Origin: a virus
Reading direction: 5' to 3' (one strand)
IMG/VR virus record: IMGVR_UViG_3300000983_000001
Coordinates: 22,891 to 86,890 of that record
DNA length: 64,000 bases
Shown here: positions 10,407-45,102 of the stretch, piece after piece
Layout: each line of letters opens with the position of its first letter
How positions within the stretch are numbered: position 1 is the first letter of the stretch
Translations under genes and position numbers: made by a program
Notes under the pieces: model-generated
Databases searched by the model: none
What the model was told of the DNA's origin: nothing
Seen by the model: only the letters and a program-made list of their open reading frames with translations

Positions 10407-13400
10407 ATGTTTGGAGACGGAGATAAAAATAAAAAGCAGAATAAAAATAATGCTTTAGATTTAACAACAGGTAAAATTGTAGAAGTTGAAGATAGGGTTG
10501 TAGTTATTAACCCTGCTACGGGAAAGATGTATAAGACTACAAATCCTTTACGTATTGACCACAGAGCAGGTACTATGAATGTTGATCCTGTCATGCAAGA
10601 GGAATTTGAGAATCTAGGTATTAATCCCACTCAAAATGTTCGTGAGGACATAGGGAAAACAATTATTGCGAAAAATAAACCTTTTTTGGATCAAGCAGGT
10701 AACGCAGTTAAACAGTTTGGTTATAATACTGTAGGTGGATTTGGTATGGCAGTTAGTGGCAACGATCTTGGGGCAGCTATTGATATTGCTAAAGGTGCTG
10801 AAAGAGAATATGAGAATGCTTTGTTTAAATGGTCAAATGATTTGATAAAAGAAGGTAAAGAGAAATACCCTATTTTTCAAGAAGCAGAAGGAGCAGTTAA
10901 TCCAGGTGATCCTAATTGGTGGTTACAGCATGGAGCAGATTTTGGTACGTCTGGTGGATTTGCTGCATATTCTGTTGCAGAGTCAGTTTTACTTGGTATA
11001 GCAACGGCTGAAACAGGTGGAGTTGGAGCTATCGCAAATCTAGCAAGTAAAGGTCAAAAGATAGCTAAAATTAGAGAATTAAGTGCAGCTAAAAAACTTA
11101 AAGACTATTTTAAAGCAAATAATAGCACAAAAGTAATAAGAAATCAAGCTTTATTAGGAGCTTCACAGGGTTACAGAGAGGGTTTAGTTGAATCTTATGA
11201 TTCCTACACAAGTATAAAAGAAGATTATTTAAAAAAGGGATATACAGAAGAAGATGCAAAAAAATATGCCTCTTTAGGTGCAGTTAAGACTTTTAGAACA
11301 GGTGTATTACCTAATATGATTTTAAATTCTGTCAGCCTTGCTGCAACTAGCTATAACCCTATCACTAAAAAATCTAAGGGTATATTAGATAGAAAAATTA
11401 AAAACCCTGTAGCTAAGGGTGTAGCCAATACTACGGCTGATATGGCTAATGAGTTCACTGAGGAGTTTATACAAAGTGCAGCACAAAAAGAGGGTCGTGC
11501 AGCAGCCGATTTAGCAGCAGGAGAGAAAGAAAAAGGAATAAGTTTAACTGAACATTTAACAGACGAAGAAAATTGGAATGCAGGGATAGGTGGAATATTT
11601 GGTTCAATAGGATTTAAAGGTTTAAGTTACCTTAAAAATAATAAAAATGCGAAATTACAAGATGCTCATTGGGCAGAAAAACATTCACAACACATAGAAG
11701 CTTTAAATAATAGAAGTTTAGGTTATTTAAAATCTATTAAAGAAGCCGAAGATAAAGAGGATTATGGTGAATCAATTAGATTACGTAGAGAAATGAACTC
11801 TCAAAACACCTTAAAATCTTTATATCTTGATGATGTCTCTGATAACGATAGTGGTTATAAAGGTCAAATGGCTTATTACGAAAATGTTTTAAACTACATT
11901 AATACTGGACAAACAGAGCTACTCGAAGAATTAAAAATTCAACCAGAGGATTACGATTTCATCAAAGAAAAATTTCCCATATATATAAAAGATAGCAAGA
12001 ACATTAAGAAACATTATGATATTGCTAAGGAAAGACATTCTTCAAATGCAGTTCTGCCTATAACAGAGAATAAACATGCATTAGATTTAATTAGAGAAAA
12101 AAGAGAATCAGTTAAACAAGATATTGAGGATATTAAGTCTAATAATGGCTATGATAAATTGTCTGTAAGTGGGCAAAATTATTTAGAGGATTCAAGCAGA
12201 TTTACTGATCTGTTGATAGCCTCAGAAAACACTTCAATAACAGAAGATCAAAAAAATGAGATAGATGAATTAAGAAAATCTTTATCTTATAGGAGAGAAC
12301 TAAGAGATCAAAAAATAGATTTAAAAAATGACCATGAAGATTTCCAATTATCTCAGGATTTAAGCAAAGACGATGACTTGATATGGGAGCTAAATAATAC
12401 TGATAAAGATGGTAAGACTATCAATTCGTTTGAAGACAAAACACCTAAAAATTTAGATTTTAATAATAGGTTATTAGGTAATTTAAACAAAGCTGAGAAA
12501 CAACTTCAAAAAAACATTAAATATTGGAGTGACCCTAAAAACCAAATAGCAGAAGCCAAAAAAGAAACTTTTAGACAAGTTGATGAAGCTGAGACAGTTC
12601 AAGAGTTGGAGCAAGCAGAACAGCAGTTGGAGCAACTTCAAGAAGCCACTGCCCCAAAGCAAAATGCAGAACAAGTTGATGAAGCTGAGATAGTTCAACC
12701 TAAAACAACTGAAACCCAAGAGATTGAACTTAAACAAGCAGAAGCCAAAGCAAGAAAAGAGGCTTTAGAGACTACCCAAAATACGGGTCAAAATGTAGAG
12801 ACACCTTCAATACCTAAACCAAAAAAGGGGAATTTGACTTTAGGTGACATATTAGCTAGTCAAGGTGATTTTGTAGGTTTATCAGAAGAAGGCAATTCAA
12901 ATGAAGATTTTGATAGATTAGATGCTATGTTTGGAGAAACACCAGATATAAATTTTAATGAAGATACAAATAATCTCGCAGGAGAAGAAGATCATTTAAC
13001 TTTTGACCCTGTAGAGTTTACCCCTGAGATAGAAGAAGATGAAAGATTAAACGATGCTGCTGATATAGTTAAAAAAACAAGAAAAAGATTAAGTCAAGAA
13101 TTAGGTAGAACTTCTACATTTAAAGATTATATTGAAAAATATATCTCATTAAAAGGTAAAGAGTCAGCCGACAAACTTTTTAATGTGTTTAAATGGTCTT
13201 GGCAAAAGAATAAATTTCAAAAAACAAATTTTGATAAAGTTTATGATCAAGTTTTTAATACTTACGAAGCTTTAACAGATAAATTAACAACTTTAGGTGA
13301 TGCTATTGTTGAACCAAATACACCTGATGTTGTAGAAAAAACTAATAATGATTTTATAAAAGAAATAATTATGCAAGAAAAACCAGTTGAAAAATTAGAC

Positions 13401-42038: not shown

Positions 42039-42188
42039 TTAGTGACAAGCTGCGTAGTTATCACCAAAGTCAATACTAATATCAATACTAACGTTTAATG
42101 GTACGACTTTGTTTGCCTTAATTATTGCTAATTTCAACGCTCTCTCTACTATCTTCTTTTTTTCTTTAGGGAATACAAGTAAAATTTC
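42039..42188 (-). CDS. polA: DNA polymerase A, exon 2 (49 C-terminal aa)
   Basis: Reads EILLVFPKEKKKIVERALKLAIIKANKVVPLNVSIDISIDFGDNYAACH*. Joined to exon 1 it restores motif C (QYHD-EILL) and the typical G-x-N-Y/W-x-x-x-H terminus. Not in the ORF track. Confidence 0.93.
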   Translation of the reverse strand, partial: EILLVFPKEKKKIVERALKLAIIKANKVVPLNVSIDISIDFGDNYAACH

Positions 42189-43113
42189 CATTGTTTTCAC
42201 ATAGGTTCGTTAATCCTATACAGTTCTCTAATGAACTTCTATATATCACTATATAGATAAGACTATATCTTATATAACAGCTTTACCATTTAAGATGTTG
42301 GTAAATTTTCTAGGTGTTACTGTTATACCCCTGCGTTTCAACTCAACTTTGAGCTTACTCCAATCTTGGATAGTCGTTGAACTCCACAACTTATATTTAT
42401 AACATTCTATAGGATATTTAGATAATATTTTCATTATCTCATAAGCTCCAAAATGTTTTCCAAAATAAAGATAACAAAATGATCTTCCGTCTTTTTTATT
42501 ATCTCTGTAAACTTGGGGTTTCATACCTAATTTCTCAAAAAAGGGAACAAAAATATTATAATGTGTATTTTCATCATAATTGTGAGTATTTAAATTAAAA
42601 AAACCATTTCTTCTGTGTAAAGAGCCATCATCATAAAACCAAAGTGCTAAACCTAAGTCATCTAAAAGACTTAATTTAGTTTTTATATCTAGTTCTTTTA
42701 TGATTTTTAATTCCATAGCTGTTTTACTGCTTAATGTGTATATTTCATTTTGATTGTATCCGTTTTTTTCGACATAACCAATCTTACCTGAAATATTACC
42801 TAACAGTTTTTGTTTAAACTCTAAATACTCTAAATATTTACAATTTGTTTTGTAAACACCTTTTCCACTTTTTTTAAGAGCTATATGTCCATCTCCAAAT
42901 TCACCAGACACTAACACTTGTACCTGATTTCTATTTAAGCTGCATAGCTGCTGATTGTCTATTTTTTGTATCATTTTAAATTCACGATTTAGTTATGACA
43001 CAATATACAAAAACTTTTTAAAACTTTCAAGTTTATCTTCACAGATTCCTTTGTAGTGTTTTTGTCTTTAAGAGTTTCCAGCAATTAACAGGGTTTATAC
43101 ACAACAATTATTT
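42189..43113 (-). mobile_element. Self-splicing group I intron (925 nt, IA-like with P7.1/P7.2)
   Basis: Exon ends in U (GAT) and the intron ends in G (CAATG). IGS GTTGTG (43100-43105) pairs with exon CACGAT, with the U-G wobble at the splice site. P AATTGCTGGAAA (43075-43086), Q AATCAGCAG (42948-42956), R GTTCAACGACTA (42371-42382), S AAGATATAGTC (42261-42271). P3 CCCTGT/GCAGGG, P8 TATAACAG/CTGTTATA, and P9 TCTATATA-GTGA-TATATAGA. Confidence 0.95.
42270..42974 (-). CDS. Intron-encoded LAGLIDADG homing endonuclease (two-motif type)
   Basis: LVSGEFGDGHI and LALWFYDDGSL motifs, located inside the intron. Confidence 0.9.
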   Translation of the reverse strand: MIQKIDNQQLCSLNRNQVQVLVSGEFGDGHIALKKSGKGVYKTNCKYLEYLEFKQKLLGNISGKIGYVEKNGYNQNEIYTLSSKTAMELKIIKELDIKTKLSLLDDLGLALWFYDDGSLHRRNGFFNLNTHNYDENTHYNIFVPFFEKLGMKPQVYRDNKKDGRSFCYLYFGKHFGAYEIMKILSKYPIECYKYKLWSSTTIQDWSKLKVELKRRGITVTPRKFTNILNGKAVI

Positions 43114-45102
43114 ATCGTGATATTGTAAGCAAATCCTAATCCCATGAGGGTTTAAAAGTTTTCTAATATGGTAAATCCACATATCAAAAAAGAAAACGCC
43201 AGTTGAAGAATTTAAAAGAGCAAAAATATCTTTTTCGTTCTTTACTAAATACCAAAATCGGGAAACTGGATTGTAAGCCCATTTTTGGTTTCTTTCGTAT
43301 TTAACTGAAACATCCTTCGTAGCTTCTACTATTCCAATTTCAGTTTCTACATCTACTATTCTTTCCTCTGTTTTGAATCTAATCATTTTAACAGATTGGA
43401 TGATAGTATCGGCTGCTGTTTGTTTTACAGCTTTGTTTCTTTTCCAGTAAATATCATATATTCTTTTCCCTTCTCTATAGTTTTCCCCTAACATTTTAGC
43501 TACTTTAGCTGCACCACAACCGTAAGTCATACCGAAATTCACAGGTTTTATTTTCTTTCTGTTTGCTGAAATAACTTTAAATTTAGCTATTTCTTCTGGT
43601 TTAAATTTATAGTCCTCTTTTTTAGATTTAAACCAATTGTAATAGTCAATCTCTTTTTGTGTGACAAGTCCTGCTAACTTAGCTATGTCAAGGTGTGGGC
43701 AAAATCCTGGCACTCTCATTTCCTTAACATACGTTGGATCATAATTAAAAATGTAGTGTTGCTTGGTGTTATCCTCCAAACCACTAACATCCGAACCACA
43801 CATAAGATAGTTTTTGTTAGGTACTGTTACACACCTTCTTATATCTTTAGCATAAGCTTTGTCTACACCTGGCAGATTTGCAAAGGGTTTCCGATGCCTT
43901 AACCTAAGTGTATTAGTTAAACCTAATTCTCCACTGTAAACTTTACCTTCGTTTATAGCGTTTTTAAAACTTTTTAAGACACCTATTCTGTGTCTGATAA
44001 CATAAAGTCCATCTAAATGTTTTAGCAGAGGTTCTTTATCGTAGAGAGCTTTTACAGATGGACATAAGCCCTGTCCAGATGGTAAGGAAACTTGGGGTAT
44101 TTTTTCTCCTTTATCGTTCTCTTTGAACGTTTCAGGTTTCCAACCTAATCCAGCCAACCATTTTTTCAACTGTGGAGAACTGGTTGGCTTAGGTAAATCT
44201 CTAACAATTTCTGTATCTTTTGGTAGATCATTTACAGTTAAATAGTTCATCCATCTATGTCCATGAGAAGTTAATTCTTTTGGTGGAGGATTAGCAATAA
44301 ACTTAAAATTTTCCTCTTTAAATTTCAAGTATTTTTCATACCTTTTACTGACAGTTATACCATCTTTTAGATATTTTTCTTCTGGTTTTTTTGAATCTAT
44401 AAGAGCTTTCCAATCAATCTCTTTTTTATAGATATTTTTAGGTTTTTTCTTTAAAATAACCCCAAGCTCTTTAGGCATTCCTGATCTTAATTTTTCTTTT
44501 TTTTCTTTAAAAGGTATCTCTAAAGCTGTCATTGTTTTAATAATAAGCTCTAGGTCTAATGTAATACCTTCCTGTTCTTGCTCCCACAAGCACTTAGCCT
44601 TAAACATTAAATAATTAATATACCTTTTTAAATCTTTCAGGTTGTCTTTGTAGATGCTAGTCAATGTTTTAATAAACATATGAAATATAACAGCATTTAT
44701 CTCTACATCAATTTCACATCTATGCATGTATGTTTCCAAATCTAAATTTTTCCAATCTAACACTTGTGGTTTTTCAATCCCTATAGATTTTCCCCAAGCA
44801 TCTAAGCCTGGTTTCTTTCTATATGGATATAAAACATAAGTTAATATCAAGGTGTCAATAAGTTTTGCTCCCACTTTTACACCTAATATTTGCTCTAATA
44901 CAGGAACATCGTAACTGATGATCTTGTGTCCGACAAGTATTTTTTGTTCTTTTAACCAGTTGGTTATAGACTGATAATCGGTTAAAGTACCTTCTGATAG
45001 AAGTTTGTGTTTTTTTGTATACGTTCTGTAACTCAAACAGTGTATCTTAGTTACATCTTCATATAAACCATCAGTTTCTATATCAAAAATTGAGTAGTTC
45101 AT
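43114..45102 (-). CDS. polA: DNA polymerase A (T7-like, with 3'-5' exonuclease), exon 1
   Basis: FDIET exonuclease motif, motif A GSDVSGLE, motif B RKKIKPVNFGMTYG (Phe at the 762-equivalent position), and motif C interrupted after QYHD. Confidence 0.95.

Follow-up and report, generated by a model that had tools for sequence, protein, structure and literature searches.

A group I intron very probably interrupts motif C in the only DNA polymerase gene of a phage

Here we describe the polA locus in a 64,000-nt stretch of viral DNA (the window; part of IMG/VR record IMGVR_UViG_3300000983_000001), where a family A DNA polymerase gene is split into two exons by an insert that itself contains a LAGLIDADG homing endonuclease gene. 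The exons, the insert and the endonuclease open reading frame (ORF) all lie on the minus strand, and positions are those of the window (Table 1). Analysis of the polymerase, of the RNA core and of the endonuclease makes it very probable that the insert is a subgroup IA mobile group I intron, placed in motif C between the codons for Asp and Glu (QYHD^E, where the caret marks the insertion point, here and below) in the phage's only DNA polymerase gene. The intron is probably IA2-like, a call made from the presence of P7.1 and P7.2 between P7 and P3'; P2 is absent.

Table 1. Coordinates of the polA locus and of the predicted elements of its intron
Feature	Position	Strand	Description
polA exon 1	45102..43114	minus	663 codons; 3'-5' exonuclease and polymerase motifs A and B; ends in QYHD of motif C
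Group I intron	43113..42189	minus	925 nt, IA-like; P7.1 and P7.2 present, P2 absent
P1	43119..43100	minus	exon CACGAU 43119..43114 with guide GUUGUG 43105..43100; U-G at splice site
P3	43093..43089	minus	5' strand CCCUG; partner CAGGG at 42333..42329
P4	43083..43078	minus	5' strand UGCUGG; partner UCAGCA 42954..42949, within endonuclease ORF
P5 and P5a	43073..42958	minus	P5 UCU/AGA; P5a extension ACAAAAAC/GUUUUUGU; contains ORF start codon 42974
LAGLIDADG homing endonuclease gene	42974..42270	minus	234 aa, 705 nt, in P6 loop; Pfam, PHROG 11023, alignment, fold search
P6	42947..42936	minus	5' strand; partner 42393..42382 across ORF body; 11/12 pairs in window
J6/7 and P7 5' strand	42381..42370	minus	UUCAACGACUAU; classical R element
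P7.1 and P7.2 hairpins	42369..42360, 42355..42340	minus	between P7 and P3'
P8	42328..42272	minus	GUAUAACAG ... CUGUUAUAU
J8/7 and P7 3' strand	42271..42261	minus	AAGAUAUAGUC; S element; overlaps ORF stop codon 42272..42270
3' domain	42260..42189	minus	hairpins about 42257..42238, 42237..42222 and 42220..42200, then tail to omega-G 42189
polA exon 2	42188..42039	minus	49 codons and stop; EILLVFPKEKKK...NYAACH; starts with motif C glutamate

The border between exon 1 and the intron reads CAA TAT CAC GAT^AAA TAA, the T at 43114 being the last exon base. Without splicing, the polA frame runs into the TAA at 43110..43108, which falls within the P1 loop, and yields the 664-aa product of the ORF list (45102..43108) with the C-terminus QYHDK. 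At the other end the intron closes with the G at 42189, after which GAA ATT TTA CTT continues in frame to the TAA at 42041..42039. Excision of 43113..42189 by script gave an in-frame coding sequence of 2139 nt for 712 aa, and residues 1-712 of this product align with the full length of seven intron-less homologues. The splice boundaries proposed in the initial annotation were exact, and so was its placement of the junction inside motif C (HD^E), with the GAA that opens exon 2 supplying the Glu. The same annotation had held that the ORF track missed the true C-terminus, and exon 2 alone indeed corresponds to the last 49 residues of the seven homologues (47-53% identity, E 1e-8 to 1e-11).

A search of 5.8 billion proteins returned 1810 polymerase homologues carrying PF00476. 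Nearly all of the 119 that were listed terminate in LQYHDE(I/L)LL....LNV.I.IS.D.G.NYAECH, that is, in the last four residues of exon 1 followed by exon 2-like sequence (EILLVFPKEKKK...LNVSIDISIDFGDNYAACH). Motif B (R..K..NFG..YG) and motif C (QYHD plus E) are both found in the spliced product, which has the motifs, the C-terminal ...H and the end-to-end similarity to PF00476 homologues of a family A polymerase. Exon 1 on its own scores 32.2 bits against Pfam DNA_pol_A, slightly below the cut-off of 34.3, and also matches RNase_H_2, an RNase H-like exonuclease domain. The nearest named polymerases, those of Pseudomonas phage PA11 and of Cellulophaga phages, are just 34-39% identical. One homologue, P0051, is cut at the same spot and ends in QYHDR. 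Three homologues (P0073, P0085 and P0109) break off at ...FSTLNQN..., a break that suggests insertion of an intron or some other element at a second site, in the conserved LNQ.TG region that lies between motifs B and C. Two loci with an intron-less motif C (L127:1052-3847 and L128:246-2352) gave matches to the window polymerase that span 0.3-1 kb beyond the gene length, a hint of insertions elsewhere in the polA genes of both.

The window belongs to a complete virus record of 87,646 bp with direct terminal repeats. A single family A polymerase gene is present in this genome, and no family B polymerase was found in its 87.6 kb. A second polymerase that would make polA dispensable was considered and ruled out, since the complete genome has just the one polymerase gene. 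Exon 1 alone has neither the glutamate of motif C nor the 49 conserved residues of the C-terminus. Because this is the sole polymerase gene of a complete genome, it is a reasonable reading of the sequence that replication would depend on splicing of the intron, as the initial annotation had supposed.

Relatives of the intron were retrieved with a 25-nt DNA pattern from the P3-P5 region, which found 62 viral contigs; this pattern and a polymerase alignment brought in relatives among viral contigs, whereas single-protein queries with the endonuclease or the polymerase returned none. In 36 of the 62 contigs, representing 22 unique sequences and 12 lineages from crAss-like phages, the intron occupies the same polymerase codon boundary, [CT]A[CT]GAT^GA[AG]. 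The ORF bodies were cut out by script, the 22 unique mini-introns were aligned and the pairs were counted. For the covariation analysis 69 proposed base pairs were followed through the 12 lineages (less than 95% mutual identity).

Over the 69 pairs, 96.7% of cells were canonical, and 38 pairs showed double-sided changes, where shuffling gave a mean of 21.7 and at most 29. In a control with the partners slid by 1-2 columns, 4-75% of cells paired. Compensatory changes are strong in P1, P3-P6, P7.2, P8 and P9. P3 is the clearest case, with zero mismatches in the 22 unique sequences and four pair types at its inner positions; the CCCUG/CAGGG of the window appears elsewhere as CAGUG/CACUG, CGAUG/CAUCG, CUACG/CGUAG, CUGAG/CUCAG or CCUUG/CAAGG. 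The exon side of P1 covaries with its guide: CACGAU/GUUGUG in the window corresponds to UACGAU/GUUGUA, CAUGAU/GUCAUG and others in relatives. In P4 a G-C pair becomes U-A in half of the sequences, P5 and P5a both covary, P6 has double changes at seven pairs across lineages, P7.2 covaries at four pairs, and a P8 stem is built in every lineage from unrelated sequences. P7 is uninformative because it is invariant (GACUAU/AUAGUC). The omega-G at 42189 has its counterpart in 22/22 unique relatives, where a G precedes GA[AG]. These introns thus combine a P1 with U-G at the splice site, a covarying P3-P8 core with the P3/P7 pseudoknot, and omega-G. All core helices P3-P9 are paired in the window copy itself; P1 with its U-G wobble, P3, P7, P7.1, P7.2, P8, P9 and omega-G had been read correctly from the start, and P4, P5, P5a and P6 were located in addition.

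Several points weigh against the group I assignment. No match was obtained when the window was searched at the Rfam gathering score. A permissive search matched RF00028 (Intron_gpI), anchored on AAGAUAUAGUC and P9, at 29 bits (E 4e-5 for the region searched, 6e-7 for the genome), as compared to the curated gathering score of 50. A low score is expected for the window copy, because the 705-nt endonuclease gene lies within the core, in stem P6, and splits the match. An ORF-less relative at the same site (L010:5103-5432, IMGVR_UViG_3300045988_166835) has an intron of 330 nt that covers the full RF00028 model at 51.6 bits, and is the only copy above the gathering score. Since the window copy falls below that score, its recognition as group I rests on comparative evidence. 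The comparison has its own bias, in that the 12 lineages were retrieved by a pattern taken from the window intron and the sample therefore favors conserved cores. Finally, the window's 3' domain, from P9 onwards, aligns badly with the other motif C introns, and the structure given there is therefore a single-sequence fold. In this domain the window copy is unlike the other motif C introns and resembles the remaining introns found with the search pattern as well as introns of Gram-positive phages. Over its 3' end (about 42294..42186) the intron shares 78-86% identity with intron segments from Staphylococcus, Enterococcus, Bacillus AR9/PBS1 and Thomasclavelia phages.

The intron-borne gene had been recognized as a LAGLIDADG gene, and this holds up: Pfam LAGLIDADG_2 (PF03161) is matched at 35.3 bits against a cut-off of 25, and PHROG 11023 at E 8e-9. 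The endonuclease homologues fall into 266 clusters, the closest of them at 66% identity. Both LAGLIDADG motifs, ...SGEFGDGH... and ...LALWFYDDGS..., each with a catalytic aspartate (D28 and D116), are kept in 50 aligned homologues, with G27, D28, D116 and G117 invariant. A sequence search of solved structures with the endonuclease returned nothing useful. The AlphaFold2 model (pLDDT 92.1, pTM 0.87) has the two-domain alpha-beta-beta-alpha-beta-beta-alpha fold, and its top Foldseek matches, I-SceI (1r7m) and I-WcaI, extend over nearly the whole chain (E 6e-10, TM 0.65-0.69, about 217 columns); I-SceI is the best of them, at TM 0.66-0.69. With both motifs invariant and the fold matching I-SceI and I-WcaI, the predicted protein is, as modelled, a monomeric two-motif I-SceI-like enzyme with an intact active site.

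The ORF and the ribozyme share 163 of the 705 nt, about a quarter of the gene, at both ends of the ORF. Translation begins in the P5 extension, and the first 39 nt (42974..42936) supply P5', P4' and the 5' strand of P6. The last 124 nt (42393..42270) supply P6', J6/7, P7, P7.1, P7.2, P3' and P8, and the stop codon overlaps J8/7. Core RNA encodes the peptide WSSETIQKWSKLQEELKS, which is near-invariant in the family. At least part of the constraint acts on the RNA, because the ORF-less L010 retains the same core RNA despite its broken frame.

Several side observations concern this gene. Its most conserved peptide, WSSETIQKWSKL..., derives from core RNA, and the C-terminal residues 199-228 are confidently helical in the model. 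In a lineage of eight contigs of 121-178 kb (L005, L018, L023, L032, L044, L045, L054 and L060) a TGA replaces an invariant Trp codon (YK.W SSET), a change that also falls in the 3' strand of P6; it fits stop-codon recoding in those large crAss-like phages. In several lineages (L003, L004, L005, L010, L051 and L052) TAnnTTTG follows the P5a 3' strand upstream of the endonuclease start, and the window has a near match, TATATTGTG, at about 43000..43014. TAnnTTTG is the -7 box of Bacteroidota promoters, and the element may serve the endonuclease gene as an internal promoter.

The distribution of the intron is sporadic. Endonuclease relatives with 46-49% identity occur in two human-gut phage records, crAss-like cr128_1 (MT774392, Steigviridae) and the unclassified MT835492, which have the same layout after a shortened 'DNA polymerase I', with flanks that align and with junctions ...CGAT^AA[AG]TAAT... 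and ...TG^GA[AG]AT.... In GenBank the cr128_1 locus (L001:1923-5069, MT774392 30639-33785) is given as a 656-aa 'DNA polymerase I' ending ...TPYDK and two hypothetical proteins; these pieces correspond to exon 1, to the LAGLIDADG gene and to an ORF containing exon 2, and the intron is unannotated. The window and cr128_1 polymerases are barely alignable (BLASTP E 0.04), but homologous introns interrupt both at one and the same position. In L010 the endonuclease body has been lost, with remnants of the ORF start and end kept, and the exons still read PVHD^EINIEAPKE. Within the window's own polymerase clade, 70/70 IMG/VR relatives have no intron and read straight through motif C. The motif C histidine codon is CAT in at least 90% of these intron-less relatives and CAC in the window, as in most intron-bearing alleles; the difference could be left over from exon co-conversion, but it amounts to a single base.

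The 25-nt P3-P5 core motif also occurs in about 26 other viral contigs, in most of them together with a GAAGATATAGTCT element, in genes other than polA (L008, L012, L014, L015, L019-L022, L025, L027, L028, L030, L031, L033, L037, L039, L041, L042, L047, L049, L055, L058, L059 and L062-L064). The upstream exons at these sites end, for example, in ...TPIYLGLEEKWL. The ribozyme family therefore occupies several genes of crAss-like phages. Among family A polymerases it has presumably moved between proteins with almost nothing in common except a few codons of motif C.

From the boundaries, the restored frame, the covariation-backed RNA fold, the intact endonuclease fold with its catalytic residues and the sporadic distribution, all of which were observed here, we infer splicing, cleavage and homing along the following lines. 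In the pre-mRNA, the guide GUUGUG would pair with the exon end CACGAU, and the P3-P9 core would fold around the endonuclease gene looped out of P6. Guanosine-initiated splicing would join GAU to GAA and produce the mRNA for the 712-aa polymerase, while ribosomes on unspliced RNA would halt at the UAA two codons inside the intron. During co-infection the endonuclease presumably cuts intron-less polA alleles at the conserved site (predicted target ...CAATATCA[CT]GATGAAAT...), and repair would then copy the intron into the cut allele. Homing elements of this kind produce sporadic distributions over unrelated hosts, as seen here. A more speculative view, to which we give little weight, is that the intron is not merely a selfish insert and acts as an RNA-level timer, endonuclease synthesis and maturation of the polymerase mRNA being mutually exclusive for each transcript. 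Translation would block splicing in this scheme because 163 of the 705 nt are shared and ribosomes would unfold P4-P8.

Other explanations of the locus differ in what they make of the RNA. The intron could be real and need a protein helper for splicing, which would be a host RNA chaperone or the intron's LAGLIDADG protein serving as a maturase. LAGLIDADG maturases are known, including a bacterial case in Thermotoga (PMC3984707; PMC3073962), the 163 nt common to ORF and core link protein and RNA tightly, and the intron has no P2. The core helices are nonetheless all intact in the window, related introns of T7-like phages and of Pf-WMP3 have been reported to self-splice in vitro (PMC3428280), and the ORF-less L010 has been maintained in a polymerase gene that is otherwise intact, an argument against any need for the protein in cis; we regard dependence on a helper as unlikely. 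A decayed, non-splicing relic, with polA reduced to a pseudogene or a truncated inactive enzyme, would suit the Rfam score below threshold and the divergence of the window's 3' domain from its relatives. It is very hard to reconcile with the sole DNA polymerase gene of a complete genome with terminal repeats, with two exons that are open and conserved, with pairing in each core helix, and with an intact endonuclease ORF in which the catalytic residues are present, and is in our judgment highly improbable.

More improbable still is a polymerase made as two polypeptides, exon 1 and a 53-aa peptide from GTG 42200, that would assemble without splicing. An ORF from this GTG does share the exon 2 frame, but the start lies inside the 3' tail of the intron, the break would separate adjacent catalytic residues, and the homologue search results included no family A polymerase split in such a form. 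The whole layout is moreover accounted for by the covariation-backed ribozyme and the exact splice-site pairing. An intein is excluded by the stop two codons past the junction and by the lack of an in-frame fusion; a group II intron by the group I core elements and the Rfam match; and a frameshift or an alternative genetic code by the exact match of the exon frames once 925 nt are removed.

Group I introns of phage family A polymerase genes have been mapped, in E. coli numbering, to residues 674 (SPO1, SP82, Bastille, Pf-WMP3), 676 (phiL7) and 881 (PhiI, W31) (PMC3428280). The residue-674 introns are, like that of the window, mobile group I introns in phage polA; unlike it, the introns at 674 and 676 lie in the fingers subdomain, and most of them carry HNH nicking enzymes. 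Closer parallels are the T7-like introns of PhiI, W31 and K1F, which like the window's interrupt motif C of a family A polymerase, carry their endonuclease genes in P6/P6a and possess a similar core stretch (AGAGACUAUCC-GAAA-GGAGUA). In K1F the polymerase annotation joins two pieces that flank an HNH gene, and the site reads TGG GTG CAT^GAT GAG TTA (VH^DE), with P1 GUGCAU/GUGCAC and an Rfam score of 35.7 bits. The T7-like site (H^D) is 3 nt, one codon, upstream of the D^E of the window, the endonuclease is HNH rather than LAGLIDADG, and the hosts are enterobacteria. Self-splicing of T7-like introns has been shown experimentally (PMC3428280), while the window intron is known here from its sequence. 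The cr128_1 and MT835492 introns agree with that of the window in position, ribozyme and endonuclease; the polymerases that host them are nearly unalignable with the window's, and the window's P9-P9.2 domain is of another type.

In phage introns LAGLIDADG endonucleases were judged less usual than HNH or GIY-YIG enzymes in a 2014 review (PMC3984707). The initial annotation's remark on the rarity of such a gene agrees with that review, but the combination is no longer striking, because later reports place LAGLIDADG introns both in crAss-like phages (PMC7886860) and in the polymerase gene of a Bacillus phage (PMC11878797). The core genes of crAss-like phages in which Yutin et al. (2021) described group I introns with endonucleases, some of them LAGLIDADG enzymes, are those for MCP, PolB, primase, ATP_43b and the RNA polymerase block (PMC7886860); we found no mention of family A polymerase or of motif C in that work. 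The polymerase gene of a Nitunavirus, a Bacillus phage, contains an intron ORF of LAGLIDADG_2 type (PHROG 11023) (PMC11878797), the PHROG family that the window endonuclease also matches. As for the overlap with the core, T4 td/I-TevI provides a comparable design, in which a subgroup IA intron bears its endonuclease gene in P6 and the coding sequence enters the core helices (PMC3073962). There 20 nt overlap, and the table of Edgell et al. (2011) goes up to 81 nt (PMC3073962), compared to 163 nt, distributed over both ORF ends, in the window.

The novelty is modest, in that the mechanism and the biology are standard for a familiar kind of selfish element in phages, and existing knowledge of how such introns work is left unchanged. 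We found no publication describing the D^E insertion point or the spread of this intron family over divergent family A polymerases. The site adds a second insertion point in family A motif C, one codon from that of the T7-like phages, to the targets of homing. A single intron family in polymerases too divergent to align also illustrates the use that homing elements make of the most conserved codons, and the unusually long overlap of ORF and ribozyme provides the 'core creep' idea with a useful example from nature. For annotation, gene callers give a shortened polymerase and small 'hypothetical' ORFs for the window phage and for many crAss-like phages, cr128_1 among them, where the true product would, from the sequence, be the spliced full-length enzyme.

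Elsewhere in the window, a single ORF of 4685 aa at 10407..24464 matches PHROG 16227, a 4401-position 'virion structural protein' profile.

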